From NCBI GenBank assembly GCA_050015495.1, contig JBEKBH010000001.1:28284-92283 (forward strand): DNA of 64,000 nt, in the 5' to 3' direction. Of the stretch, positions 1,849-53,151 are shown one piece after another. A program made the translations under genes and the position numbers. The notes beneath the pieces are model-generated. The model had not been told where the DNA came from. It did not search any database and saw nothing but the letters and a program-made list of their open reading frames with translations. Positions within the stretch are counted from its first letter, which is position 1. Each line of letters starts with the position of its first letter. The stretch comes from Verrucomicrobiia bacterium (lineage in GTDB: Bacteria; Verrucomicrobiota; Verrucomicrobiia; Palsa-1439).

Positions 1849-4800
1849 ATGGGCAATCGCGACGAACGTACCAAGCTGCTGACCGCATTGCTGGACGAAC
1901 GCATCCTCGTGCTCGATGGCGCGATGGGCACGATGATCCAGCAGCGCAACCTTTCTGCCGACGACTTTGGCGGCCCCGCGCTCGAGGGCTGCAACGAAAA
2001 CCTCGTGCTCACGCGGCCCGACGTGATTCTCGACATCCATCGCCAGTACTTCGAGGCGGGCGCGGACATCGTCGAGACCGACACGTTCGGCGGCACGCCG
2101 CTCGTGCTCAACGAATACGGCCTCGCCGACAAATGTTTCGCACTCAATGCCACCGCAGCGAAACTCGCGCGCCAAGCCGCCGCCGAGTTCTCGACCCCGG
2201 CGAAGCCGCGCTTCGTCGCCGCGTCCATCGGCCCGACCACGAAAGCCATCACGGTCACGGGCGGTGTGACGTTCGCGCAATTGATCGACCATTTCTATCA
2301 ACAGGTCCGCGGACTCGCTGAAGGCGGCGCCGACATCCTCCTCGTCGAAACCTGCCAGGACACGCGCAACATCAAGGCCGCGCTCATCGGCATCCAGCAG
2401 GCCTTCGACGAACTCGGTTATAAACTTCCGATCATGGTCTCGGGCACGATCGAACCCATGGGCACGATGCTCGCCGGCCAGGCCGCCGACGCCCTCGTCG
2501 CGTCGCTCCAGCACGTCGACCTGCTCAGCATCGGCCTCAACTGTGCGACCGGTCCCGAATTCATGACCGATCACATCCGCACCATCCATCAGATGGCCAA
2601 CACGCGCGTCTCCTGCTATCCCAACGCAGGTTTGCCGAACGAGGAAGGTCTGTACCTCGAAACGCCGACCTCGCTGGCGTCGGCGTTGGAGCGGTTCGTG
2701 AAAAACGGCTGGCTCAACATCGTCGGCGGCTGTTGCGGCACCACGCCGCCCCACATTAAAGCCATCGCGCAGATGGTCGACGGCAAACCCCCGCGCACAT
2801 TCCGGGCCGCGCGCAAATCCTGGTACACCGGCATCGAACTCGTCGAGGCGACCGACGACAATCGCCCGCTCATCGTCGGCGAGCGCACCAACGAGGTCGG
2901 CTCGCGCGCGTTCAAGCGCCTTATCACCGACGAGAAATTCGAAGAAGCCACCGAGATCGCCCGCGCCCAGGTCAAGAGCGGCGCACACATCATTGACATC
3001 AACCTCGAAAACACCGACCGCGACGAGTTGGCCGACATCGACCGCTTTTACGAGAAGGTCATTCACAAGGTCAAAGTGCCGTTCATGATCGATACGACGA
3101 ACGCTCGCGCCATCGAGCGCGCGCTCACGTATTGCCTCGGCAAAAGCATCATCAACTCGATCAATTTCGAGGACGGCGAGGAAAAATTCCACAAAGTCCT
3201 GCCGCTCGTAAAGAAGTTCGGCGCGGCCATCGTCATCGGTTCCATCGACGAGGACAAACTCCAGGCCCAGGCCATCACGCGCGAACGCAAACTCGCCGTC
3301 GCCCGGCGCGCCCGGGATTATTGCGTCGAGCGCGGGATCGCGGAAGAGGATTTGATCTTTGACGCGCTCGTGTTCCCGTGCGCCACCGGCGACGAGAACT
3401 ACATCGGCAGCGCCGTCGAGACCATCGAGGGCGTGCGCCTGATCAAACAAGCCCTGCCCAAATGCAAGACCGTCCTCGGCGTGAGCAACGTCAGTTTCGG
3501 TCTGCCGCCCGCCGCGCGCGAGGTCATCAATTCCGTCTTCCTCTATCACGCGACGAAAGCAGGTCTCGACCTCGCCATCGTCAACGCCGAGAAACTGGAG
3601 CGTTACGCCACGATTCCCGACAAGGAAAAGAAGCTCGTCGAACATCTTCTCTGGAACCTGCCGTTCGCCGGCTTCGATGCGCCCGACGATTACCGCCAGC
3701 AGACCCGCGAACAGCGCATCGCGATCAACCAGCATCACATCGCCGCCATCAATGAGCATTTTCGCACCGCCGAGAGCCGCGTCAAAAAGAAAACGTCGGA
3801 CCTCCCGCTGAATGGTCGCCTCGCCAATTACATCCTCGAAGGCTCGAAGGAAGGTCTCATCGACGATCTCAACCTCAAGCTGAAGGAAGCCGCGCCGCTC
3901 GACATCATCAACGGCCCGCTCATGGACGGGATGAAAGAGGTCGGCCGCCTGTTCAACGCCAACGAGTTGATCGTCGCCGAGGTGCTGCAAAGCGCCGAGG
4001 CCATGAAAGCCGCCGTCGCGCACCTCGAACAATTCATGGAGAAGAAAGCCGATTCGACGAAGGGCAAGGTCCTCCTCGCCACCGTCAAGGGCGACGTGCA
4101 CGACATCGGCAAGAACCTCGTCGAGATCATCCTCTCGAACAACGGGTTCAATGTCATCAATCTCGGCATTAAAGTCCCGCCCGAGGACCTGATCAAGGCC
4201 TACCGCGAGCACAAGCCCGACGCGATCGGCTTGTCCGGCCTGCTCGTCAAAAGCGCCCAGCAAATGGTCATCACCGCGGGCGACCTGAAACAGGCGGGCA
4301 TCACCGTCCCGTTGCTCGTCGGCGGCGCCGCGCTCAGCGACAAGTTTACCCGCACCCGTATCTCGCCCAGCTACGAGCGCGTCGTCGTCTATTGCAAGGA
4401 CGCCATGACCGGCCTGTCGATCATGAACCGGCTCATGGACCCCGCCGAACGCGACAAACTCGCCGTGGAACATGCCCCATCTGGAGGGCCACGCTCCGTC
4501 GTGGCCGCTGTAGACGAATTCCCGGAAACCACGCAGCGCAGTTCGCGCGTGCGGATCCTGCCGCCGCGCCCCGCGCCGTACGCCGACCGCAAAGTGCGCG
4601 ACGTGCCGCAGCTCCGCGAGATTTGGGAATACATCAACCCCCAGATGCTCTACGTCCGCCATCTCGGGTTCAAATCCAATTTCGAGAAGGCGCTCGCCGC
4701 CCGCGACCCGAAAGCGCTGGAATTGGCGAGCCTCGTCGACGACGTGAAAGCCGAGGCCGCCAAATTCATGAAGGTCAAAGCCGTCTGGCAATTCTTCGAT

Positions 4801-7242: not shown

Positions 7243-7509
7243 AATGCGGTCCCTCCGATGAGTCGGGGTTGTCGGTTGCCCGGCATCGACCCGAATTCTG
7301 CCACGGGCGGGCCGCTTCCCGAAAGCCAAAACCGGCGGGTCCGCCACCGCGAGCAAGCGCTGTCCCAATCTCCGGGTGGAGGGACGCGCTCCGTCGCGTC
7401 CGCTGATATGAGAGATTACAGACGGCCACGACGGAGCGTGGCCCTCCAAGTCCGGTCATTGCACGGCTTGCAATCGGTTCTGCCTGTCACTACACTTTGC
7501 GTCAAACCC

Positions 7510-15225: not shown

Positions 15226-16494
15226 TCACACCAGCCACGACGGTATCGTCTCGCCCGAAACCAGGTCCTTGACCGACTCCCGACGCCGCACCAGTTCGCA
15301 CCGGCTCCCGTTCACCATCACTTCCGCCGGACGCGGCCGCGCATTGTAGTTCGACGCCATCGCCATCCCGTACGCGCCCGCGCTCATCACGGCCAGCAGC
15401 GCATCCTCCTCCACCGCCGCCACACGCCGCCCTTGGGCCAGAAAATCGCCCGACTCGCAAACCGGCCCGACGACGTCCGCCGTGATTTTCCGGCGCGCCG
15501 ACCTCTCGGCCACAGGAATGATCTCGTGATGGCTCCCGTACAGCGACGGACGAATCAGGTCGTTCATCGCCGCGTCGACAATCACAAACCGTTTCACGGG
15601 CGTCTGTTTGATGTGTACGACCCGCGTGACCAGCACGCCGCCGTTGCCGACAATGAAACGTCCCGGCTCCAATAAAATCCTCAGCCCCAGCTTCTTCACG
15701 TGCGGCGTGACCGCGCGGGCAAATTCCACCGCCGTCGGCGGACGTTCCTTTCGATACCGAATGCCGAGCCCGCCTCCCATGTCGAAGGATTGCAGCGTCC
15801 GGGGCGCAATCTCGCGCACCTGCTCGATCAATGGCGTGATTTTGCGAATCGCCAGCACGAACGGCGCGGTCTTGGTGATTTGCGAGCCGATGTGCATCTG
15901 GACGCCGCGGATTTCGATGCCGTCCAACCGCGCCGCCTGACGGTACACATCCAGGGCGTTCCGGAGCGAAATCCCGAACTTGCTTTCGTGTTTGCCCGTC
16001 GAGATGTAGTGGTGCGTGTCCGGGTCAACTCCCGGGTTCACGCGAATTGCAATCGGCGCCCGCCGGCCCATGCGTCGGGCCACCCCGGCAATCCGCCGCA
16101 ACTCCGGCTCGCTTTCCACGTTGAACATGTAGATCCCCAGTTTCAACGCGTACTCGATCTCGTCCCGCGTTTTGCCCACGCCCGAGAACACGCATTTCCT
16201 CGGATCGCCACCCGCCTGCACCACCCGATACAATTCGCCGCCGCTGACGATGTCAAAACCCGTTCCCGACCGCGCCAGCGCGCGGAGCACTGCCAGGTTG
16301 CTGTTGGCCTTGACCGCAAAACAAATCAGGTGATCGAGCGACCCCAGGGCCTTGTGCAGATCGTCGCACTGGCCCGTGATATGTCCCTGGCTGTACACGT
16401 ACAACGGCGTGCCGAATTCCCGGGCGAGACGCCGCAGCGGCACACCCTCGCAATACAACTCGCCCTTCCGGTATCGGAACGCGTTCATTGGCAT
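15226..16494 (-). CDS. lysA: Diaminopimelate decarboxylase LysA
   Basis: The 422-aa protein has the PLP site FAVKANSN. The blocks GFDIVSGGEL, HIGSQI, GGGLGIRY, EPGRFIVGN and CESGDFL match the Orn/DAP decarboxylase family. Confidence 0.95.
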   Translation of the reverse strand: MPMNAFRYRKGELYCEGVPLRRLAREFGTPLYVYSQGHITGQCDDLHKALGSLDHLICFAVKANSNLAVLRALARSGTGFDIVSGGELYRVVQAGGDPRKCVFSGVGKTRDEIEYALKLGIYMFNVESEPELRRIAGVARRMGRRAPIAIRVNPGVDPDTHHYISTGKHESKFGISLRNALDVYRQAARLDGIEIRGVQMHIGSQITKTAPFVLAIRKITPLIEQVREIAPRTLQSFDMGGGLGIRYRKERPPTAVEFARAVTPHVKKLGLRILLEPGRFIVGNGGVLVTRVVHIKQTPVKRFVIVDAAMNDLIRPSLYGSHHEIIPVAERSARRKITADVVGPVCESGDFLAQGRRVAAVEEDALLAVMSAGAYGMAMASNYNARPRPAEVMVNGSRCELVRRRESVKDLVSGETIPSWLV

Positions 16495-16620
16495 AGTGAG
16501 TTTACCAACAAGCCTTTACACCCGCAACCCTCCGCTCCGCCCCGAAGACTCTCGGGGTTGTAGCGTCCGCTGTCCCCAGCGGAATTCCCTCTTTCTCTTG
16601 CTCCTGCCCTTCCTCCCCCC

Positions 16621-16701
16621 AACTTGGCTTCGTTTTTGGCTTTGTTTCAGTAACTTTTCCACGCCGGCTTGCATAAACTTGGGTTCGTTTTGCGAAAAAC
16701 C
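16621..16701. repeat. Two tandem copies of a TTGG(C/G)TTCGTTTT-core intergenic motif; the same core recurs at 47447-47570
   Basis: The first copy is aacttggcttcgtttttggc at 16621-16640. The second is aacttgggttcgttttgcgaaaaacc at 16676-16701. The second copy is nearly identical to agcttgggttcgtttcgcaaaaacccc at 47544-47570. Confidence 0.5.
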
Positions 16702-16742
16702 ATTTTTTTGGAGGGCGAGCCTCATCCCCAGCCCCCCGCGTC

Positions 16743-16779: not shown

Positions 16780-17047
16780 ACTCCCGTGTCCTACGCCGCC
16801 TACCCCCATCAGCCACTTGTCCGCCTCCGGCGGATTCTCCATTAACCATTTTCTCATCGCCTATATCAAAAACCAATCCGACCCCGTAATAATATCGTAC
16901 ATCAATACCAGAGTCAAATCTAATAATCGACAGCCCACGCCGCGCTACAGCGACGCAAACCCACGTCCTTGTAACGCTGCTGATTGCGCTATCGCTGGTC
17001 TTCCTGGCGCTTGCACGGATGGCCTTGATGATGCCGGCGCGTTAGTC

Positions 17048-17908
17048 TCACGACAGAACGTCATCGGGCGAAACTTCAAGAATATCTCTGCAAAACTCTG
17101 ACATTATATTTCTACAGCGAACCATCGCTGGCTTCTCAACCGTTCCTTCGTTTGCCCACTTCGGAAATCCAAATCCAGCCTTCCACGAGGCGTTAAGAGG
17201 TAGAATCTGTCCAAATTCATCTCCCTCTTGCATGAAAACCCCTCGATAATGAATGAACTTGTAGAACATTCGCTTGTCAAATTGCCGCGTCAACGTCAGG
17301 ACGATAGTAAACGCGGGAATAATTTTTCCAGTGCCTAGGGTCTTTAGGTAAGGCGCTTCCATCGAGCCGCTTCCCGCATGAATCAAAAGTCCATTACAAT
17401 CTTCAAATGGCTTTATGAGCACACTCTCTTTTGGTAGGAATTGTGCTTTTAGCCTACGGTCCAATGTGGCACCCCCCGCTTCGTTTAGTGTGCTTTTTTC
17501 TCGGTCAAATACCGAGCATACAACCGCGAGAAGGCGCAACTCCTCAAACTTTTGTCGAGACGTGTTCGTGACCATGATTGTGCTTTTAAACGAACCTTCG
17601 CCGTGGTCGATAACTACCGAAATGGTGGGCTTGCTGGCATTCTGTATTTGTTCTTGGGTTTGTCTTATCTGCTCACGTTGCAACCACAGGGCGCAAACGA
17701 CACCAGCAAACGCTAGACCGGCAAATAGAGAATTCACTGCACCGAACATGTCTCCGAATTGTCCACGGTCAGAATAGGGTGAATTCGGATTTGGGGGAAC
17801 GAAATGCAAAATCAACAACCACGCTGACCCCCATAGTGCAATCACTACTGCGAAAACTAAAAACACCCACCAGTACCGCTTTGCAAATTCCAGTGCCTTC
17901 TTCATCAC
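17048..17908 (-). CDS. Island gene D: hypothetical 2-TM membrane protein with ~200-aa C-terminal soluble domain (candidate membrane-disrupting effector)
   Basis: The 286-aa protein has TM helices near residues 12-33 (WWVFLVFAVVIALWGSAWLLILHF) and 55-76 (FGAVNSLFAGLAFAGVVCALWL). The gene sits in a low-GC segment, 19 nt downstream of gene C. It has no motif I recognise. Confidence 0.6.
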   Translation of the reverse strand: MMKKALEFAKRYWWVFLVFAVVIALWGSAWLLILHFVPPNPNSPYSDRGQFGDMFGAVNSLFAGLAFAGVVCALWLQREQIRQTQEQIQNASKPTISVVIDHGEGSFKSTIMVTNTSRQKFEELRLLAVVCSVFDREKSTLNEAGGATLDRRLKAQFLPKESVLIKPFEDCNGLLIHAGSGSMEAPYLKTLGTGKIIPAFTIVLTLTRQFDKRMFYKFIHYRGVFMQEGDEFGQILPLNASWKAGFGFPKWANEGTVEKPAMVRCRNIMSEFCRDILEVSPDDVLS

Positions 17909-17927
17909 TTGCTCCTAACGGCTCACT

Positions 17928-18389
17928 TCAATGTGCAACAGCCTGAGCCAACTTCGTTACAAACTGTTTGAGGCAATCCTGTGGTACGAGAACGCTGAAC
18001 CCATCGTCGCCATAGAATTCGATTTTGGTAATCTCCGAGCCGTCACCATGTGGTCGGATGTCCAAGTGGGAAATGCTGTTCCTCATGCGATAGATGAGTT
18101 CGCATAGTGTTCCGTAATGTTCAGGTTTGACCTTCTCCGGGCGCTTTCCCCAATTCTTCACGAATTCAAGGTGAAATCCCCAATCTCCGAGTTGTTCGAT
18201 TGGGATAGGTGGTAGACGGTTAAATCGCCGCTCATTCGGCAGCACCAACAAACCGAGCAGGCAGTTAATCAGGAGCGTCACTTCAACTTGCTCTCGCTTT
18301 TCCACCGCGCTTTGTACGTGCGTCTCGTACTGCTGAATAATAGCGAGCGTTCTGGTGATGAAGTCTCTCTCAAACACTTCGTATTCCAT
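17928..18389 (-). CDS. Island gene C: small (153 aa) HEPN-motif protein
   Basis: The sequence LIYRMRNSISHLDIRP contains R-N-x3-H, which fits the HEPN Rx4-6H catalytic motif. The gene lies in the low-GC segment, and its size is typical of a minimal HEPN domain. Confidence 0.5.
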   Translation of the reverse strand: MEYEVFERDFITRTLAIIQQYETHVQSAVEKREQVEVTLLINCLLGLLVLPNERRFNRLPPIPIEQLGDWGFHLEFVKNWGKRPEKVKPEHYGTLCELIYRMRNSISHLDIRPHGDGSEITKIEFYGDDGFSVLVPQDCLKQFVTKLAQAVAH

Positions 18390-18410
18390 AAATGCAGTCT
18401 CGCAGCTTCA

Positions 18411-19151
18411 TCAGGCAACAGGTGTAGACTCCCTCCATCTCTCTTCAAACAATTTCAACTGAGCGGCAGGATTCGCAATCCGGTTCAACTGCGTGTCCTT
18501 TGTGCCAAGGTCTTTCATCGAGTGACCAACGTGGAACCCATGAGACTTGTCCCACAACACAAAACGGTCATGAATTTGTTGAAAGCCATGCAGGCGCATC
18601 TCGACTTTGCCGTATTCGGCTTTGAATGCACCGTATGCGATGATTGCTGCACTTTTTGTTTGGTCGGAAGTGATAATCCGTACAGATGCCCCGGTTTCCG
18701 CGTCCTGAATCAAATCGAACACCTTTGCGCCGATGTAAGGGTCAAGGATGCAGAGTTCGGCCTTTGCGAGACTGAAAATTTCTCGTAGAATGCGATTGGC
18801 CTTGAAGTGTTCTCCTGCCCTTACGAGAATTTCATCTTTTTGAATATTGGACACACGGATGATGGGCTGACTTTCCCATTCCTGTTGAGCGTGGCTCATT
18901 GATGCGTAAAGCTCCGCTCCATAATCCGTCAATCTGACCATATGCCCGTCTGGTGAAAGACTCAGAACATTTTTATCAATAAGAGATTGGAGTATCTGGT
19001 CTCCGGTTTCGCAATGCAATCTGGCGAGTGCTATTTGAACTTGTACAAGCTCGTGCGGCATCGTCCACGACATGAACTTCATAAAGTAGACACCGACGAC
19101 CCAAAATTCTTTTTTGGAGAGTTCTGCCATAGGCTTTAGACAGTCTCCCAT
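18411..19151 (-). CDS. Island gene B: hypothetical 246-aa protein, N-terminal winged-helix-like region plus C-terminal acidic/His-rich domain of unassigned fold
   Basis: The N-terminal stretch ILQSLIDKNVLSLSPDGHMVRLTDYGAELY resembles a wHTH recognition helix and wing. The C-terminal half has the conserved-looking blocks CILDPYIGAKVFDLIQD, VRIITSD, IHDRFVLWD and GFHVGHSMKDLG. These give only weak PLD- or PIN-like resemblance. Its start overlaps gene A by 16 nt. Confidence 0.5.
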   Translation of the reverse strand: MGDCLKPMAELSKKEFWVVGVYFMKFMSWTMPHELVQVQIALARLHCETGDQILQSLIDKNVLSLSPDGHMVRLTDYGAELYASMSHAQQEWESQPIIRVSNIQKDEILVRAGEHFKANRILREIFSLAKAELCILDPYIGAKVFDLIQDAETGASVRIITSDQTKSAAIIAYGAFKAEYGKVEMRLHGFQQIHDRFVLWDKSHGFHVGHSMKDLGTKDTQLNRIANPAAQLKLFEERWRESTPVA

Positions 19152-19798
19152 CCTGCATCAACGGAGCGCAACTGTCCCCAATGGAACTTGCGCGGAACTG
19201 TGTCGAGAATTGTTGCGATGTAAACAAAAAGATTCTGTTTCGCGATGTCGTCACACCCAACCACATCACAGGCGAAACGTAACGCGGCCCTAAGATTTGT
19301 TTCAGGAGCCTGCAAGTGTCGTTGATTTCCCTTCTTCGCACCCGCCAATATCGCGCAAATGAGCTTAGGTTCTTCGGGTGCTGTCTTGTCGAGAAGTTTA
19401 AGACAAACCTGAGCAAATTCCATTTTGTTTGGCATCCATGGCCCCTTCCATTCGACCCGTATGCGTGGGCAGGTGTGGATAACAAAATCGTGGTTCCCTC
19501 TCTGGCCCCGTAGCACTTCTTGCCTCTCCTTCTGAACATTCTCAAGCCTCAGAGCTTTCCAACTGAATTTGCCAGCAGTTTTTCCTTCCGGTGTCAACAG
19601 GTGCTCCGTCCACATGTCAACCCCATCTTCTTTGAAATGCTTCCAAAGCAGGCACGAAAATTTGTGGTGAAAAAATCGTTCGTTCGCTAAATCCTTAAAC
19701 GAGTCATACCCAACAGTATTCCGATGCGCAGCCGTCACTGCCAGAATCTGCTCAAGGATTGCTTCCCAATCCGATCGATTCAGTTCGTATTGCACCAA
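19136..19798 (-). CDS. Island gene A: hypothetical ~220-aa protein with possible PD-(D/E)xK nuclease motif
   Basis: The likely start is TTG/GTG at rc 19795-19798, 8-9 nt after AGGAG, and the protein begins VQYELNRSDWEAIL. The longer track ORF extends upstream into the tandem-repeat region. The stretch WTEHLL...GNHDFVIHTCPRIRVEWKG gives E...D...ExK spacing compatible with a restriction-endonuclease-like fold. This is speculative. Confidence 0.45.
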   Translation of the reverse strand: MVQYELNRSDWEAILEQILAVTAAHRNTVGYDSFKDLANERFFHHKFSCLLWKHFKEDGVDMWTEHLLTPEGKTAGKFSWKALRLENVQKERQEVLRGQRGNHDFVIHTCPRIRVEWKGPWMPNKMEFAQVCLKLLDKTAPEEPKLICAILAGAKKGNQRHLQAPETNLRAALRFACDVVGCDDIAKQNLFVYIATILDTVPRKFHWGQLRSVDAGWETV

Positions 19799-19891
19799 GC
19801 AGCTTCTCCTTCTGCGCGTACGGATAGGGGTCAGACCTATGATCTTGACACCATCCCCTCCCGCCTCCGCCCGAAGTGCCGTCACCCCCCA

Positions 19892-19970
19892 CTTCGAATT
19901 TCGACATTCGGACTTCGAGTTCTGCCCGCACCCGTGCGCTTCGAATTTCGACATTCCGATTTCGAGTTTC
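19892..19970. repeat. Tandem direct repeat (2 x ~31-nt unit, period ~47 nt) at the right boundary of the low-GC island
   Basis: The first unit is cttcgaatttcgacattcggacttcgagttc at 19892-19922. The second is cttcgaatttcgacattccgatttcgagtttc at 19939-19970. Confidence 0.6.
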
Positions 19971-46405: not shown

Positions 46406-47359
46406 ATGACGAACACAATCACGCAAATCGATCTGGCGGGCGTCCCGAAACTCAAGAGCGGCAAAGTCCGCGAGGTCTTCGACCTCGGGGATTCGCTGCT
46501 GTTCGTGGCCACCGACCGCATCAGCGCGTTCGATGTCATCCTGCCCAACCCGATCCCCGAAAAGGGCCGCGTCCTCACCGCCCTGAGCGAATTCTGGTTT
46601 GGCAAGACCCGGCACATCGTCGAGAACCATTTCATCACGTCCGATTTGGCCGGGCAGGCGCGCCGTTTGCCGAAATCGGTGGCCGCCGCGCGGGCCGCGC
46701 TGCAGGGCCGCTCGATGCTCGTGCGCAAGTGCCAGCCGCTCCCGGTCGAATGCGTCGTGCGCGGGTACCTCGCCGGTTCCGGGCTTAAAGAATACAAGCA
46801 GTCGCAAACCGTCTGCGGCATCAAGCTGCCCGACGGGCTTGTCGAATCCAGCCCGCTCCCCCAACCCATTTTCACGCCCGCGACCAAGGCCGAGACCGGC
46901 CACGACGAGAACATCGATTTCGACCGGTGCGCGCAAATCCTCGGCAGACCGCTCGCCGAGAAAGTGCGCGACACCTCGCTCGCCCTGTACAGTTACGCCC
47001 GTGATTATGCGGCCACGCGCGGCATCATCATCGCCGATACCAAATTCGAGTTCGGGCTCCGTTCTGAAACTGTAGCGGCGGTCTATGACCGCCGAGCGGA
47101 TTCGGCGCTCGCAGAGCGCCGCTACAGCGGCCAGTTGATTCTCATCGACGAAGCGCTCACGCCTGACAGTTCCCGTTTCTGGCCCGCCGACGGCTACGCG
47201 CCGGGCAAACCCCAACCGAGTTTCGACAAGCAATTCGTCCGCGATTACCTCGAAACCCTCGATTGGGACAAGACACCGCCGGGACCGGTCCTGCCCGACA
47301 CCGTCATCCGCAAGACCACCGAGAAATACCTCGAAGCGCTCACAAAGCTCACCTCCTAG
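46406..47359 (+). CDS. purC: Phosphoribosylaminoimidazole-succinocarboxamide synthase (SAICAR synthetase, long form)
   Basis: The blocks GKVREVF, FVATDRISAFD, DTKFEFG and LILIDEALTPDSSRFW match SAICAR synthetase. A ~22-aa palindromic-repeat-encoded insertion sits after DTKFEFG. Confidence 0.9.
   Translation: MTNTITQIDLAGVPKLKSGKVREVFDLGDSLLFVATDRISAFDVILPNPIPEKGRVLTALSEFWFGKTRHIVENHFITSDLAGQARRLPKSVAAARAALQGRSMLVRKCQPLPVECVVRGYLAGSGLKEYKQSQTVCGIKLPDGLVESSPLPQPIFTPATKAETGHDENIDFDRCAQILGRPLAEKVRDTSLALYSYARDYAATRGIIIADTKFEFGLRSETVAAVYDRRADSALAERRYSGQLILIDEALTPDSSRFWPADGYAPGKPQPSFDKQFVRDYLETLDWDKTPPGPVLPDTVIRKTTEKYLEALTKLTS
47070..47128. repeat. Palindromic miniature element inserted in-frame in purC
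   Basis: The outer arms are ctgtagcggcg and cgccgctacag. The internal sub-palindrome is ggcgctc gca gagcgcc. In the purC frame it encodes RSETVAAVYDRRADSALAERRYSGQ, sitting between conserved blocks TKFEFG and LILIDE. Confidence 0.55.
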
Positions 47360-47446: not shown

Positions 47447-47570
47447 CCAAACCGAACCCAAACGAACCCAACGCAAAAATCATTTTTCAAAAGTTCTAAC
47501 TACCCGTCCCACAACCTCATTCACACGCACTTTTGATCCAAAAAGCTTGGGTTCGTTTCGCAAAAACCCC
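47447..47570. repeat. Inverted plus direct copies of the TTGGGTTCGTTT-core motif also found at 16621-16701
   Basis: The inverted copy at 47447-47479 is ccaaaccgaacccaaacgaacccaacgcaaaaa. The direct copy at 47544-47570 is agcttgggttcgtttcgcaaaaacccc. It lies in the 600-nt leader upstream of the giant surface-protein gene. Confidence 0.45.
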
Positions 47571-47595
47571 CTTTTTGTGGCTGCGCCCCTTCTAG

Positions 47596-47689
47596 CCGCG
47601 TTTCGTAAACGCGGACCGGCCGCCTGCCCCGACAACCGACGTCGGGGCCGAAGGGTGCCGTGCTTCGTGACCTTCGTGACTTCGTGGTG
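47596..47689 (+). promoter_or_regulatory. Structured segment in the giant-protein leader: two perfect hairpins followed by 3 tandem CTTCGTGAC units
   Basis: The first hairpin is ccgcgttt-cgt-aaacgcgg at 47596-47614. The second is ccccgac-aaccgac-gtcgggg at 47627-47647. The tandem run gcttcgtgaccttcgtgacttcgtggtg lies at 47662-47689. The function is unknown. Confidence 0.3.
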
Positions 47690-47976
47690 AACATCTATGC
47701 CCCTATGTCAAACAACCCAAAACGTCGCCGACTATACGCTATCGTATACACCTTGTCCAGAAGATTCTGATGGTGGATCAAAACAAATGCCCCCCTTCCC
47801 CCTTCTCTCCCGGCGAAGCCCGCGTTTGGCCGAACTCTTTCGGCCATCACGTGGCCCCCCCCGCGAGCCTTGATTTGGCTTGCTTCAACGACCGCTGAAA
47901 GTTACTATCACGTCTGAGCGCGAGGTTTGATTCACCCCGAAGTGATTGACGGCCTTCCGAGGCTGAGAGGCATACC

Positions 47977-50900
47977 ATGCACCGAATGCGGCGCGGTTGT
48001 CTGATCGCGGGATTTCTCGTCTGGATTGCGCTGCCGGCTATCTCGCACGCGCAAACCATTCCCAGCGCTCCAACCAATCTTCAGGCCACCGCGGCATCGC
48101 CATTCCAGATCAACCTGACTTGGATCGACACGTCCACCAACGAAAGCGGATACATGGTCGAGCGGTCGCTCGACGGGATCAATTTCACCCAGATCGCACA
48201 ACTGCTGCCCCAAACAGCGACTTACCGCGACACCGGAGCGTGGCCTGGCACGACTTATTACTACCGCGTACGCGCGTACAATACATCGGGCGACTCGGGT
48301 GTTTCCGCGATTGCGAGTGGGGCTACACCGGCGGTGTGCAACGCATCGGCTGTGGCTTGGGGGTGGAACGGGTACGGCCAAACGGCGGTCCCGACGAATC
48401 TGAGTGGCGTGGTAGCCGTCTCTGCCGGCATGGAGGACAGTTTCGTCTTGCGCAGTGATGGCACAGTCCTCGGTTGGGGCGACAACAGTTATGGGATATT
48501 GACACCGCCCGCCGGTCTTACCGGCGTGGTGGCCGTATCTGCCAATGTTGCCAGTACGCTCGCGCTGAAGAGCGACGGCACCATGGTGATGTGGGGCTTT
48601 GAGTGGGATCAGTTGCCGAATGTGACCGGGGTGGTGGCCATCGCGAATGGATGGCAGCATAGTCTGGCTTTGTTAAGCGACGGCACTGTTATTGGTTGGG
48701 GATTGAACGAGTCGGGTCAGATCAGCATCCCCACAAATCTAGCGGGGGTTGTGGCCATCGCAGCGGGTGGTTATCACAGCCTGGCGTTGAAAAGCGACGG
48801 TACCGTCGTCGGCTGGGGAAATGGCGGGTCGGGACTGGCGACTCCACCGACCAACCTCACCGGAGTGGTCGCGATCGCAGCTGGCGGCCACCATAGTCTG
48901 GCGCTGAAGAGCGACGGCACGGTTGTCGGCTGGGGCGATAACACCTACGGCCAGGCAACACCGCCTGCCGGATTAACTGGAGTGACGGCGATCTCGGCGG
49001 GTTGGCAACATAGTTTGGCCTTGATGAGCGACGGCACCATCATCGGATGGGGCGACGATAGCAATGGCCAAATCAGTCCCCCTGCCGGGCTGGCCGGGGT
49101 CACGGCCATTTCCGCCGGCTACCTTCACAGCTTGGCGGTGGCGCCAGTGATCAACGCGCCGTCAAATCTTACCGCGACGGCAGTTTCGACCAATCAGATC
49201 AATCTGGCGTGGACAAGCAGTGGCCCTGTGGACGGCTTCAACATTCGGCGGGCACCGGACAATGGCGGCAGCCCGGGGGCTTGGACTCAAATCGCGACGG
49301 TGGGTCCCAACACCACGAATTACAATGACGCCGGACTTGCCTCGAACGCAACGTATTGGTACCAACTGCAGGCTTTCACGGTCTGTGGAGTATCCTTTTT
49401 CACGGATCCGGCAAGCGCCGCTGTGCCATCGGTAGCCGCGCCGTCGGGACTCTCGGCAACGGGTGTTTCGGCTGGCCAAATCAATCTCACTTGGACAAAT
49501 AACAGCACGACGGAGAACGGCTTCCTCATCGAACGCGCTCCGGACAACGGTGGCGTTCCGGGCACGTGGACGCAAATCGCCTCGGTCAACTCAAGTACCA
49601 CGGCTTACAGCGATACAGGGCTTCTGCCGTTCACACTATATTGGTACCGCGTACGAGCGTATGACAATAGTGGGGATTCTGTTTATAGCAACTTGGCCAG
49701 CGCGTTCGTCCCGGCTCCGTGTCCGAGATACGTCGCCGGCTGGGGATACAATGCGAGTGGTCAGGCAACGGCCCTGACAGGACTGGTTTCGGCCATTGCC
49801 ATTGCCGCGTTTGGCGATGGGAGCCTCGCACTCACGAGTGATGGCACCGTCCCGTTGTGGGATACGCAAGTGACACCACCAGCAACGTTAACGGGGGTTG
49901 TGGCCATCGCTATGGGCTCTGGATTCAATCTGGCATTGAAGGGCGACGGGACCGTGATCGGCTCGGGTAATGACATGTGGGGTCAACTCACTCCGCCGGC
50001 GGGAACGACGGGCGTTGTTGCCATCGCCGCCGGCGGGTTCGAAAGCCTGGCACTCCAGAGTAATGGCATTCTTGTTGTCTGGGGTGACACCCGCGGCGTC
50101 ACCTCGCTAACCGGAATCGTCGCCATGGCCTCGGGCGATTACCACAGCCTGGCGGTGTACACCAATGGCACGGTGGTTGGCTGGGGTAACAATAACTACG
50201 GCCAAGCGACTTCCCCGCCGGGGTTGACTGGCGTGGTCGCTGTCGCTGTCGGTGACTATCATAGTCTGGCATTGAAGAGCGATGGCACCGTTGTGCAATG
50301 GGGCACCACCATTTATGGGGAGTCCGTGCCGCCGGCAGGTTTGTCGGGCGTCGTGGCCATCGCCGCCGGTGGAACTTTCAGTCTGGCACTCAAGAGCGAC
50401 GGCACCGTCGTCGCTTGGGGTGACAATCAGTATGGGGAGTCGACTCCGCCGGAGGGCCTTGCGAACGTGATCGCCATCGCCGCCGGCTGGGACCACAGTT
50501 TGGCATTGAGCCTGCCATGTCCGTTGAGCGCTCCTTCGGCGTTGACCGCGACCCTTCTCTGGCCAAGCCAGATCAATCTCTCTTGGCTTAACAATTCGTT
50601 TGACGAGGACGGGTTCAAGATTGAGCGCGCTCCGGACAACGGCGGAGTTCCGGGCACTTGGGCGCAAATTGCCACGGTCAGTTCCAACGTCGCCACTTAC
50701 AGCGATACCGGACTTTCCCAAGGTGTGACATATTGGTACCGCGTACGAACCTACAACGTGGCAGGAAATTCCGATTACAGCAACCTGACGAACGCCACGA
50801 TTCTACTACCGCCCGTGGCTCCGTCGGGTCTGACCGCGACGCCGTTGTCCAGTGTCCAAATCAGTTTGTCGTGGACGGACACCGCCAATGATGAGACCGG

Positions 50901-53151
50901 GTTTGCCATTGAGCGCGCTCCCGACACCGGGGGTAGTCCGGGGACGTTCGCTCAGATCGCCACCGTCAATTCGAATGTGACCGCCTATACCGACACGAGC
51001 TTGACGACAAACACGACGTATTGGTATCGCGTGCGGGCGTCCAACGCCGGCGGTTATTCCCCCTACAGTAACCAAGCGGACGCAACGACCTTCCGTCCCC
51101 CTCCTGATTCCTGGATTAGTCTGGCGAGCGGAAAATGGGAAGCAGCAGGAAGTTGGTCGTTGGGCGTGCCGCCTTCGATCCTCCTCACCGGGGAGCTGAT
51201 CACCAACGACAATTCCAAGACAGTCACAATCGATGCTACGACCGTCAGCAATTCCCCCAGCACCCTCACCATCAGCAACCTGACGGTGTCCGCCCCGTCA
51301 GGAGGGACGAATACGCTCCTGTTGACCACCGGGGGCAGTCCAACGCCGCTCCACGTGTTGCGCGGAATCTCGCTTGGGTCGGGCGGCCTGCTGGACATCG
51401 AGAATTCTTCGTTGCAGGTCGACGCGAACACTTTCTGGATTGACGGTACGCTGCTCGTCCAGAACGGTGGTCAAGTTACACCTCCGACACGGCCTGAAGG
51501 GGTCAACCAACTCGTGATCGGCAATGTGGCTACCGGCATGATGGTCGTATCGGCGGGGACGGTTGTGAGCGAAGGGGGTACCGTCGCCTATGAGGCTGGT
51601 TCGCAGGGGACGCTCGTCATTTCGAACGGAGCGACTATCCGGCTCTCATACCTCGCCATCGCTGAGTCTGGCTACTACTCGACGGGCGCTGTGTGGCTCT
51701 CGGGTAGTGAGTTGACCACGACAAACTACGGACAGCCGAATTTTGTGTTCGTTGGCCAGTGGGGCGCAGGCCAGATGACGGTGTCGAATGGCATGGTGCT
51801 GTCAGGTCAAGCCTACGTGGGATACTACCCTGGCTCGTGCGGAACTTTGACCGTGGTCGGTGGCAGCGTAACCCTTTCCTCGGCACTCACTGTCGGCTAC
51901 GACTCCGGTGCGACGGGCGCGGTCTGGCTGGCCGGTGGCCAGCTTGTCGCAAGTGGTAAGGGCACCGCGAGTATCGGCGCGAACGGGGCTGGTCAATTGA
52001 CAGTCACGGGCGGCACCATGCAAGCTTCGTCGATGGTTATCGGGCAGTACGGCGGCTCGCAGGGTTCATTGACGGTGTCGGGCGGCGCGGTTTCGGTCTT
52101 GTCGAGCCTCGTGATCGGCGATTGTACTACGACCGCGAGCGGCCAGGTCGCTGTGGCTGGCAGCGGAAGCCTGTTTGTAACCAACGCGAGCCACACGGCG
52201 TTTCTCGACGTGCGTCATGGCACGCTGATGGTCGGCGCCGGCGGCGTGCTCGTGGCGGACAGGATCGTGGCCACCAACGCCTGCGGGCGGGTCATTCGCT
52301 CAAGCGGAGGCACGATCACCGCCACGACAATGACTCTGGATCCCTCCCTCAGCGCGGTCGGCGACGGTATCCCGAACGGATGGAAACAACAATACGGCTT
52401 CGACCCGTTCGATCCCAACCTCGCCAATGAGGACCTGGACGGCTCCGGGTTCACTGTTTTGCAAGACTACTTGGCCGGCCTCGACCCCACCAATCCTGCG
52501 TCGTCGTTCCGGATTACGGCGATCACTCCGGTCGGTACCGATATCCGGGTGTACTTCACGTCTGTCGGCGGGAAGTATTATTCGTTGCAAAGGTCTGACT
52601 TCATGGGCGGCGCGTGGACGGCCATCGCGACCAATATCCCCGGCAATGACAGCATCCAATGGGTCAAAGATATCGGCGCGGCCTCGCGCCCGAGTGCGTT
52701 CTACCGAATCCTGCTCGAACAGTTGACCAACGCTCCGCCGGTGGACAGCGATGGCGATGGCGTACCGGACTGGTGGACGCAAGAATACTTCGGACATCCC
52801 ACAGGCCAGGCGTCCGATAATTCACTGGCGACGGACGATCCCGACGGTACCGGATTCACCGTCCTGCAGGATTATCTGGCCGGCCTCGACCCGACCAACA
52901 GTGCGTCGTCGTTCCGGATCACTTCGGTCGTGCCGAGCGGCATCGACTTGTTGGTGACGTGGACGATGGGTCCCGGCCGGACCAACGCCCTGCAGGCGAC
53001 GGCGGGGGACGCGACCGGCAGCTACAACACCAACGACTTCGCCGACATCTTTACCGTCACCAACACGGTCGGCACGACGACCAACTACCTCGACACCGGC
53101 GCCGCGACCAACTTCCCTGCGAGATACTATCGTGTGCGTCTGATACCATAA
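47977..53151 (+). CDS. Giant (1724 aa) secreted surface protein: RCC1-like repeats, multiple fibronectin type III domains, PATR/beta-helix repeat region, C-terminal DxDGDG (thrombospondin-3-like) Ca-binding-like repeats
   Basis: A signal peptide is followed by more than 15 repeats of the type GWGxNxYGQxTPPAGLTGVVAIAAGxxHSLAL, which are RCC1-like. FN3-like units have the pattern INLTWTxxSxxExGFxIERAPDNGG..YWYRVRAYN. The region 1100-1450 has repeated GxxxVxxGGxLxV beta-helix-like strands. DSDGDGVPDWW-type motifs sit near the C-terminus. Confidence 0.85.
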   Translation: MHRMRRGCLIAGFLVWIALPAISHAQTIPSAPTNLQATAASPFQINLTWIDTSTNESGYMVERSLDGINFTQIAQLLPQTATYRDTGAWPGTTYYYRVRAYNTSGDSGVSAIASGATPAVCNASAVAWGWNGYGQTAVPTNLSGVVAVSAGMEDSFVLRSDGTVLGWGDNSYGILTPPAGLTGVVAVSANVASTLALKSDGTMVMWGFEWDQLPNVTGVVAIANGWQHSLALLSDGTVIGWGLNESGQISIPTNLAGVVAIAAGGYHSLALKSDGTVVGWGNGGSGLATPPTNLTGVVAIAAGGHHSLALKSDGTVVGWGDNTYGQATPPAGLTGVTAISAGWQHSLALMSDGTIIGWGDDSNGQISPPAGLAGVTAISAGYLHSLAVAPVINAPSNLTATAVSTNQINLAWTSSGPVDGFNIRRAPDNGGSPGAWTQIATVGPNTTNYNDAGLASNATYWYQLQAFTVCGVSFFTDPASAAVPSVAAPSGLSATGVSAGQINLTWTNNSTTENGFLIERAPDNGGVPGTWTQIASVNSSTTAYSDTGLLPFTLYWYRVRAYDNSGDSVYSNLASAFVPAPCPRYVAGWGYNASGQATALTGLVSAIAIAAFGDGSLALTSDGTVPLWDTQVTPPATLTGVVAIAMGSGFNLALKGDGTVIGSGNDMWGQLTPPAGTTGVVAIAAGGFESLALQSNGILVVWGDTRGVTSLTGIVAMASGDYHSLAVYTNGTVVGWGNNNYGQATSPPGLTGVVAVAVGDYHSLALKSDGTVVQWGTTIYGESVPPAGLSGVVAIAAGGTFSLALKSDGTVVAWGDNQYGESTPPEGLANVIAIAAGWDHSLALSLPCPLSAPSALTATLLWPSQINLSWLNNSFDEDGFKIERAPDNGGVPGTWAQIATVSSNVATYSDTGLSQGVTYWYRVRTYNVAGNSDYSNLTNATILLPPVAPSGLTATPLSSVQISLSWTDTANDETGFAIERAPDTGGSPGTFAQIATVNSNVTAYTDTSLTTNTTYWYRVRASNAGGYSPYSNQADATTFRPPPDSWISLASGKWEAAGSWSLGVPPSILLTGELITNDNSKTVTIDATTVSNSPSTLTISNLTVSAPSGGTNTLLLTTGGSPTPLHVLRGISLGSGGLLDIENSSLQVDANTFWIDGTLLVQNGGQVTPPTRPEGVNQLVIGNVATGMMVVSAGTVVSEGGTVAYEAGSQGTLVISNGATIRLSYLAIAESGYYSTGAVWLSGSELTTTNYGQPNFVFVGQWGAGQMTVSNGMVLSGQAYVGYYPGSCGTLTVVGGSVTLSSALTVGYDSGATGAVWLAGGQLVASGKGTASIGANGAGQLTVTGGTMQASSMVIGQYGGSQGSLTVSGGAVSVLSSLVIGDCTTTASGQVAVAGSGSLFVTNASHTAFLDVRHGTLMVGAGGVLVADRIVATNACGRVIRSSGGTITATTMTLDPSLSAVGDGIPNGWKQQYGFDPFDPNLANEDLDGSGFTVLQDYLAGLDPTNPASSFRITAITPVGTDIRVYFTSVGGKYYSLQRSDFMGGAWTAIATNIPGNDSIQWVKDIGAASRPSAFYRILLEQLTNAPPVDSDGDGVPDWWTQEYFGHPTGQASDNSLATDDPDGTGFTVLQDYLAGLDPTNSASSFRITSVVPSGIDLLVTWTMGPGRTNALQATAGDATGSYNTNDFADIFTVTNTVGTTTNYLDTGAATNFPARYYRVRLIP

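Follow-up and report, generated by a model that had tools for sequence, protein, structure and literature searches.

A short intergenic motif of a Verrucomicrobiia genome, its core shared across phyla and its interpretation as an interspersed repeat

What is a block of some 26 nucleotides (nt) of non-coding DNA doing in two unrelated intergenic regions 31 kb apart? The question is raised by a 64,000-nt stretch of the genome of a Verrucomicrobiia bacterium (contig JBEKBH010000001.1; the whole stretch is called the window here), in which an earlier note, made from the sequence alone, described the 26-mer aacttgggttcgttttgcgaaaaacc (16676-16701) beside a gene that it named lysA and the similar agcttgggttcgtttcgcaaaaacccc (47544-47570) ahead of a giant-adhesin gene. 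A transcription-factor site, a promoter element of an alternative sigma factor and a small dispersed non-coding element were offered as explanations. Every string quoted in that note was found in its place. A repeat search of the window recovered the near-identity of the two 26-mers as 82% identity over 34 nt (16675-16708 versus 47543-47576), and the additional degenerate copy described at each locus is present as well, tandem and direct at lysA and inverted at the adhesin locus (47447-47479). On balance, we favor the last of the three explanations: both sites would belong to a family of short intergenic repeats, interspersed and non-coding, that behave similarly to repetitive extragenic palindromes and bacterial interspersed mosaic elements (REP/BIME) or to miniature inverted-repeat transposable elements (MITEs), with the non-palindromic 12-mer core TTGGGTTCGTTT.

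The exact core occurs three times in the window, at 16679 (+), 47547 (+) and 47460 (-), and all three copies are intergenic. From base composition, 0.004 copies were expected (Poisson P(>=3) = 1.2e-8), and chance is excluded for the window sites because of these three exact copies and the 34-nt repeat pairing. When up to two mismatches were allowed, 13 matches were found versus 5.75 expected; several of the extra ones lie inside long open reading frames (ORFs), judging by their coordinates, and are probably chance matches. The density in the window is two motif loci per 64 kb, none within genes.

A scan of one genome per species with the pattern TTGGGTTCGTTTNGCNAAAAA revealed at least 119 exact loci versus about 4 expected, the latter being our estimate from the 19 specified bases. 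Among the matches listed, 54 loci belong to Alphaproteobacteria/Pseudomonadota, 20 to Verrucomicrobiota, 19 to Planctomycetota and 11 to Acidobacteriota, with single loci in Armatimonadota, Binataceae and Methylophilaceae and a handful of matches, probably due to chance, inside genes of AT-rich taxa. Removal of near-identical flanks left 91 contexts, whose information content is restricted to (a)TTGGGTTCGTTT[T/C/G, almost never A]GC[A]AAAAA and a weak T-run at +25 to +30; no conserved partner element was found on either flank in this profile. The core, often extended to TTGGGTTCGTTT-[T/C/G]GC-A6, is identical letter for letter in about 90 unrelated intergenic contexts from at least four phyla, with a conserved length of 12 to 21 bases. 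This conservation across phyla had not been foreseen in the earlier note, whose proposal of a small dispersed element agrees with the number of loci, the diversity of their contexts and the turnover at the purC site described below. Copy number differs wildly: some complete chromosomes have one match among the matches listed, and one alphaproteobacterial metagenome-assembled genome (MAG) carries at least 25 copies, with the motif mid-way in a repeat of ~450-500 nt.

At the gathering threshold, no Rfam model matched over the motif, either in the window or in 18 loci, and a local search at E <= 10 was also empty; the literature on the motif sequence and on repeats in these phyla yielded nothing relevant. 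The motif is essentially absent from a plasmid collection, with partial, chance-level matches only. Neither hairpin formation nor dyad symmetry was detected, as the predicted folding of the 21-mer and of both window copies did not exceed that of shuffled sequences (z = 0.07, 0.11 and 0.75). A protein-coding reading, to which the variable positions 3 nt apart and the avoidance of A at position 12 pointed, was dropped because open-frame spans around the motif are equal in all six frames, i.e., there is no reading-frame preference.

The core is part of larger units. Counted relative to the full motif, extra direct cores number 49 at -150 to -51 and 9 at +50 to +149; they are about 5-fold more common upstream, and the unit is therefore polar: one or more cores make up the head, a spacer of 40-100 nt particular to the lineage follows, and the tail consists of the core, NGC and A6. 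Its form varies between pairs of a core and an inverted core, pairs of direct cores and solo cores. In Planctomycetes, three to five tandem cores with a 10-11-nt period, in the variants TTGGCTTCGTTT, TTGGCTTTGTTT and TTGGGTTTGTTT, lie 90-135 nt upstream of the full motif. Bryobacterales loci and an unclassified MAG show direct cores ~100-150 nt apart, and in Verrucomicrobiia an inverted core is located ~62 nt upstream, often with a degenerate inverted core downstream. The earlier note had allowed that its motif might be merely part of a larger interspersed repeat placed at random, also inside genes. It is indeed part of a larger, multicopy repeat, but the placement is not random, since 76 of the 90 non-redundant copies are intergenic.

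At the lysA locus, the tandem degenerate copy and the 26-mer belong to one repeat unit of ~70 nt (16622-16690), of which they form the two ends and which recurs in relatives. The string aacttggcttcgtttttggc (16621-16640) holds the tandem degenerate cores TTGGCTTCGTTT (16624-16635) and TTGGCTTTGTTT (16636-16647), which are also the commonest core variants in other phyla. They form, with a 12-nt period, the head of this direct-type unit (16624-16647, plus strand), and the same head is found in the homologous units L223 and L224 (L numbers denote loci outside the window). The lineage-specific spacer that follows (16648-16678, plus strand) includes the 17-mer TTTTCCACGCCGGCTTG (16655-16671), which is identical in L223 and L224, where it lies downstream of purC, and absent from the rest of the window and from the other 223 loci. 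The tail (16679-16709, plus strand) comprises the full motif TTGGGTTCGTTT-TGC-GAAAAA (16679-16699), CCA and a run of seven T (16703-16709), and it fits the cross-phylum scan pattern and the conservation profile, including the weak T-run. No significant structure was predicted for this unit (z = -0.95).

The unit at the adhesin locus is of an inverted type. Its left arm (47447-47471, minus strand) contains two overlapping inverted cores, at 47450-47461 (one mismatch) and 47460-47471 (exact), ~90 nt past the purC stop codon. A 75-nt spacer (47472-47546, plus strand) leads to the full motif TTGGGTTCGTTT-CGC-AAAAAC (47547-47567), which is overlapped by a CAAAAA/TTTTTG hairpin (47561-47577), the two together spanning 47547-47577 on the plus strand. 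This small hairpin is by itself no better than shuffled sequence (z = 0.1). The whole unit, read as RNA, has a long predicted stem (dG -27.1 kcal/mol, z = -5.0), in which the left arm pairs with 47547-47560. A weak candidate for a degenerate inverted partner, CAAACAACCCAAA (47709-47721, minus strand; the core minus one base), sits ~160 nt downstream of the full motif. It was read directly from the sequence and is put forward only by analogy with 8 of 10 Verrucomicrobiia units that have a degenerate inverted core 18-150 nt downstream.

Comparison with related genomes, which the earlier note had recommended, revealed that the motif is not kept at the orthologous spacer downstream of purC. This spacer carries the inverted-type unit in the window, a direct-type unit homologous to 16622-16690 in L223 (purC 93% identical) and L224 (87%), and no motif at all in L225 (84%). 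The inverted-type spacer aligns with homologous spacers in L033 and L110, from other Verrucomicrobiia MAGs, where the unit lies beside a Ser/Thr kinase gene and not purC. The MAG JBEKLM01 holds both unit families at loci other than those of the window, the inverted type beside the kinase gene (L110) and the direct type after purC (L224). In this lineage, the loci taken up by the two unit families differ from one relative to the next, and an orthologous position may lack a unit altogether. The repeat is gained, lost and exchanged between loci, unlike a conserved cis-regulator; since unit type and presence vary at the purC-downstream site, it is not a conserved regulator there. L219 and L220, independent assemblies of the same strain, both end 340-400 nt after purC, inside the repeat-rich spacer, as expected if a multicopy repeat breaks the assembly.

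These observations bear on the regulatory explanations. The full motif reads away from lysA and towards the adhesin gene. A transcription-factor site common to both genes is disfavored by these opposite orientations, by unrelated neighbors elsewhere (among them KduI, ProRS, GlutR and a class-III aminotransferase), by the lack of a conserved partner element in the profile and by the preference for 3' ends, which outnumber 5' ends by 54 to 40 among the neighboring gene ends. Nor do the sites behave as a transcription-factor regulon, as distances and orientations vary and the motif is lost from the orthologous purC spacer. Regulation specifically of lysA or of the adhesin gene by the motif is not supported.

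An alternative-sigma promoter element driving lysA, the adhesin gene and others appears highly improbable. The motif superficially resembles a sigma-54 promoter (TTGGGTTCGTTTTGCA versus TGGCACG-N4-TTGCA; in the general form TGGCACG-N4-TTGCW), with TGG and TGC within 16 nt, and a gene in the same direction follows 7 of 10 units, at 75-340 nt, in a single pair of Verrucomicrobiia MAGs. However, both window copies place the G of GC 11 nt from the first G of GG, one base short of the 12 in the consensus, and the base ahead of GC, i.e., the -14 position, is variable (T, C or G). Orientation and context do not suit a promoter either: the element points away from lysA, divergent, promoter-rich spacers are its rarest context, the genes downstream of Verrucomicrobiia units are unrelated housekeeping genes, no -10 or -35 partner is conserved in the profile, and copies are gained and lost at orthologous sites. 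No promoter or terminator consensus coincides with the motif at either window locus, with both strands scanned for terminators. A sigma-32 look-alike was rejected, as its -10-like CCCCAT is not general among copies. A sigma-70 promoter at the motif was likewise discarded: there are only two unrelated minus-strand matches (10 of 12 positions; 16889-16917 and 47731-47759), which precede the reverse-complemented motif by 160-190 nt at the two loci, and they may be coincidental with 0.3-0.4 expected per region.

The motif could also be a chromosomal binding site of a conserved DNA-binding protein, such as a global regulator, a silencer or a nucleoid organizer, so that its copies would be functional and not selfish. 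The core is invariant across phyla and does not need a flanking partner, copies are almost all intergenic, and the tandem arrays follow the helical period, so that cores 10-11 bp apart could load several protomers on one face of the helix. In contrast, presence, absence and type of the unit vary at one orthologous site among close relatives, copy number is wildly uneven (one match among the matches listed versus at least 25), the neighboring genes are functionally unrelated, and 3' ends are faced somewhat more often than promoter-bearing 5' ends. A further observation in its favor, a copy right beside one particular gene, is common for proteins with cognate sites near their own gene. Taken together, we regard a binding site of this kind as unlikely.

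The gene in question encodes an uncharacterized protein found beside the motif in 11 of the 119 loci, in Alpha- and Betaproteobacteria, Verrucomicrobia and one Acidobacteriaceae MAG (L062). This linked protein has the N-terminal signature ..ANRxNAxxSTGPxTxxG[KR]xxSxxNAxxHG.. and a C-terminal RYE motif, and its family comprises 37,313 representatives of 50%-identity clusters at E <= 0.001. It had no match in Pfam, NCBIfam, PHROGs or PADLOC and no profile match in the PDB, and its AlphaFold model (all-helical, predicted local distance difference test score [pLDDT] 76) yielded only generic coiled coils in Foldseek. A match to the small terminase phrog_1889 (E = 0.004) was too weak to use.

The association was then examined blind to the motif, with loci retrieved through the linked protein alone (family loci L120-L133, L139-L157, L221 and L222, all outside the window). 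The reverse-complemented motif TTTTTGC[C/A/G]AAACGAACCCA[A/T] lies 8-33 nt past the stop codon in all five genomic contexts retrieved in this way. In metagenome loci, a reverse core was present within 200 nt downstream of the linked gene in 24 of 60 usable cases versus 0.45 expected. Nearly all relatives of at least 40% identity have it, often with a second copy ~80 nt further on, which is the standard unit with its tail abutting the linked gene. In more distant relatives, the motif is often absent or forward-oriented right after the stop codon; an alignment of the broader family was too divergent for finding loci. The motif adjoins the linked gene in two of three chromosome-assembled records with a single match among the matches listed (L004 and L066) and also on the short verrucomicrobial contig L028.

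In Verrucomicrobiia, a gene for a KTSC-domain protein precedes the linked gene. The pair marks the edge of variable islands, with MmeI-type restriction-modification or Kinase-PolyVal genes, beside the housekeeping genes rplB, eno and glgB. This location lends some appeal to a site-specific recombination site (att-, dif- or attC-like), at which crossover at the core would insert modules or islands and leave a core-module-core arrangement. The units are core-spacer-core and bounded by direct cores, the motif stands exactly at the junction of those islands and the housekeeping genes, and the direct-type unit of the window separates lysA from a four-gene, low-GC block with a HEPN gene. Yet the opposite island boundary has no core within 10 kb, no integrase or Xer-type gene is associated, the core lacks the dyad symmetry typical of recombinase sites, and site-specific integration would not be expected to yield tandem arrays that lack spacers and repeat every 10-11 nt. 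No recombinase was listed among the genes of eight genomic contexts. We consider a recombination site quite unlikely.

The fixed orientation after the linked gene also fits an RNA-level element of 3' untranslated regions, read as UUUUUUGCNAAACGAACCCAA, that would act as a non-canonical terminator, a Rho-loading signal, an insulator or a transcript stabilizer. When the tail faces a 3' end, it is often just 5-51 nt from the stop codon, and 5' ends are always 58 nt or more away. On the reverse strand, C is abundant and G scarce, from which we infer that arrays would resemble Rho utilization (rut) sites, and the inverted-type unit after purC folds as described above. In contrast, no GC-rich hairpin precedes the T-run, and the terminator scan was empty at both loci. 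The stretch between the stop codon of the linked gene and the motif is unstructured and just 8-33 nt long, the unit at lysA lacks significant structure, and outside the linked gene the orientation bias is weak (tail side, 24 versus 16; head side, 30 versus 24). An invariant 12- to 21-mer would be unnecessary for a terminator or a rut site. An RNA element of this type therefore seems improbable to us.

We thus return to the interspersed repeat family, which on balance accounts for both window sites. Dispersal, polar units and turnover between loci are established by the data above; how the units spread and what the linked protein does are inferred. The core would be the recognition site of a trans-acting protein that copies or recombines units beside existing cores, which would account for the placement of cores on both sides of a spacer as well as for the tandem arrays with their period of 10-11 nt. 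By analogy with REP-associated tyrosine transposase (RAYT) genes, which are flanked by REPs, the linked protein is the obvious candidate for this trans-acting factor. The dispersed copies, including both in the window, would largely be passengers in spacer DNA, with possible secondary consequences, among them the 14-bp long-range stem 3' of purC.

Several findings count against this interpretation. No transposase, recombinase or RAYT-like gene recurred near the copies in an all-versus-all ORF comparison of the 119 loci, the units share no consistent terminal inverted repeats, and no clean target-site duplications could be defined. The linked protein has neither a catalytic-looking domain nor a fold match, its gene is not in the 64-kb window, and the motif is missing from the opposite island boundary. 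Gene calls in the fetched loci, on which the counts of gene ends and intergenic copies are based, were crude (ORFs filtered by third-position GC). Moreover, the letter-for-letter identity of the core across phyla is unlike the lineage-specific REPs and MITEs and fits the functional site of a conserved factor at least as well. This identity is a feature without explanation in any known repeat class, and it keeps the binding-site, recombination-site and 3'-end RNA explanations alive.

A more specific proposal, which we advance tentatively as a possibility, is that the core is the cognate cis site of the ANR-signature family. Protein and site would then make up an undescribed cross-phylum system, either a repeat-mobilizing or recombination machinery or a means of chromosome marking, and the site would have been amplified in some lineages to hundreds of intergenic copies in the polar core-spacer-core form.

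Two further candidates were discarded. An insertion sequence (IS) end is contradicted by the lack of a transposase in the 8-kb loci and of kb-scale inverted partners; a possible likeness of the motif to the terminal repeats of IS6 and ISL3 is no more than a lead. A phage pac/cos site or phage-borne element was rejected in view of only 5 motif matches in a viral collection, where the linked gene has no relatives. Phage-like or mobile-looking regions with the motif in several intergenic gaps were seen in alphaproteobacterial MAGs (L015, L047, L111, L066 and L013), with an ERF recombinase fused to DUF968/HNH and small XRE-type regulators among their features. In L047, the reverse-complemented motif lies ~14 nt past the stop codon of a frame that was translated by eye and may encode an XRE-type C terminus.

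The genes around the two window loci were also inspected. The product of the gene at 15226-16494 (minus strand) is a pyridoxal-phosphate-dependent decarboxylase of the ornithine/diaminopimelate/arginine (Orn/DAP/Arg) decarboxylase family, with which the name lysA is consistent, as a putative one. Next to it lies the low-GC block (17048-19954; GC 0.49-0.53 versus ~0.60) with four minus-strand genes, one of which (17928-18389) is a HEPN gene of the pEK499_p136 type. Two of the remaining genes had no match in Pfam, and the last one (17048-17908) matched DUF6082 only below the threshold. The block looks like an acquired island, with the direct-type unit at its lysA-side edge. At the second locus, the unit is flanked by purC (46406-47359, plus strand) and the gene of the adhesin, an RCC1/fn3 protein of 1724 amino acids (47977-53151, plus strand). 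The purC product is 100% identical to a protein recorded at NCBI under Verrucomicrobiia, in line with the origin of the window from a MAG of this class.

Other repeats were noted in passing. Within purC, a 26-nt inverted repeat, CTGTAGCGGCGGTCTATGACCGCCGA / TCGGCGCTCGCAGAGCGCCGCTACAG (47070-47127), encodes an in-frame insertion of ~21 amino acids that is present in the window and in the 93%-identical relative and absent from relatives of 291-303 amino acids; closely similar sequence is intergenic in L033 and L110. It looks like a second, palindromic dispersed repeat that landed in frame inside a gene. Compared with L219, which is a same-strain assembly, the window shows an indel of ~8 nt in a short CTTCGTGAC tandem repeat at about 47672-47680. 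A perfect 26-nt inverted pair, TGGAGGGCCACGCTCCGTCGTGGCCG (4482-4507 and 7423-7448), with arms 2.9 kb apart, probably represents another GC-rich dispersed repeat family.

For the window, the analysis does away with the attractive but unsupported idea that lysA and the adhesin gene are linked by regulation. Beyond it, the repeat deserves attention because it breaks metagenome assemblies, produces spurious ORF calls and marks the edges of variable islands with restriction-modification genes and a candidate defence gene.

Among known systems, the DNA uptake sequence of Neisseria and the uptake signal sequence of Pasteurellaceae resemble the motif in their invariant 10-12-nt core, their AT-tract flanks and their frequent occurrence as inverted pairs downstream of genes. 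In contrast to the motif, with two loci per 64 kb, almost exclusively intergenic copies and a cross-phylum distribution, they occur about once per kb, are frequent in genes and are family-specific. Integron attC arrays and pdif modules share the short site right after the stop codon of a cassette's last gene and the site-module-site arrays; here, however, neither an integron integrase nor an Xer context is present, R/L-box and XerC/XerD half-site symmetry is lacking, and the other island boundary has no site. Centromere-like iterons (parC of R1, sopC of F) are likewise direct repeats with a 10-11-bp period and form a cis site beside the gene of the binding protein, but they are plasmid-borne single loci, whereas the motif is chromosomal, dispersed and rare in the plasmid collection, with no ParA- or ParM-type gene nearby.

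MITEs such as Correia, RUP, BOX and Nezha are closer, being small, non-coding, multicopy modules of 70-500 nt with polymorphic sites that break assemblies, and presence/absence polymorphism at an orthologous site was indeed observed downstream of purC. They differ in that consistent terminal inverted repeats and target-site duplications could not be defined in the family described here, and in that it has no parent IS or transposase: no transposase is among the recurrent neighbors in the 119 loci, and the linked gene has a copy on one side only. The direct cores that bound some spacers could be a duplication of ~12 nt; an empty counterpart of such a site, with one core in the matching position, was not recovered. 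Furthermore, its conserved part is an internal or terminal 12- to 21-mer common to otherwise unrelated modules.

REP/BIME elements of Enterobacteria and Pseudomonas are short intergenic repeats as well, with tens to hundreds of strain-variable copies that stand alone, form inverted pairs or cluster with linkers particular to a lineage, and that favor the 3' side of genes. The motif agrees with them in its many intergenic copies, in both orientations and with a 3' bias; it has neither the stem-loop palindrome nor a RAYT gene. A REP is an imperfect palindrome with a GTAG head, restricted to one genus or species, whereas the core described here is non-palindromic and identical across phyla. Both systems include a dedicated gene physically flanked by repeat copies. 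RAYTs are HUH/Y1 transposases, in contrast to the linked protein, which is all-helical without an HUH or Y1 signature and has the repeat only 3' of its gene. REPs, MITEs and other short interspersed repeats are as a rule confined to one genus. An identical 12- to 21-mer in Verrucomicrobiota, Planctomycetota, Acidobacteriota and Alphaproteobacteria implies either a conserved factor that reads it or horizontal travel with its own machinery, and its tight placement behind the stop codon in a very large protein family (~37,000 clusters, with no Pfam domain and no fold match) provides a concrete candidate.

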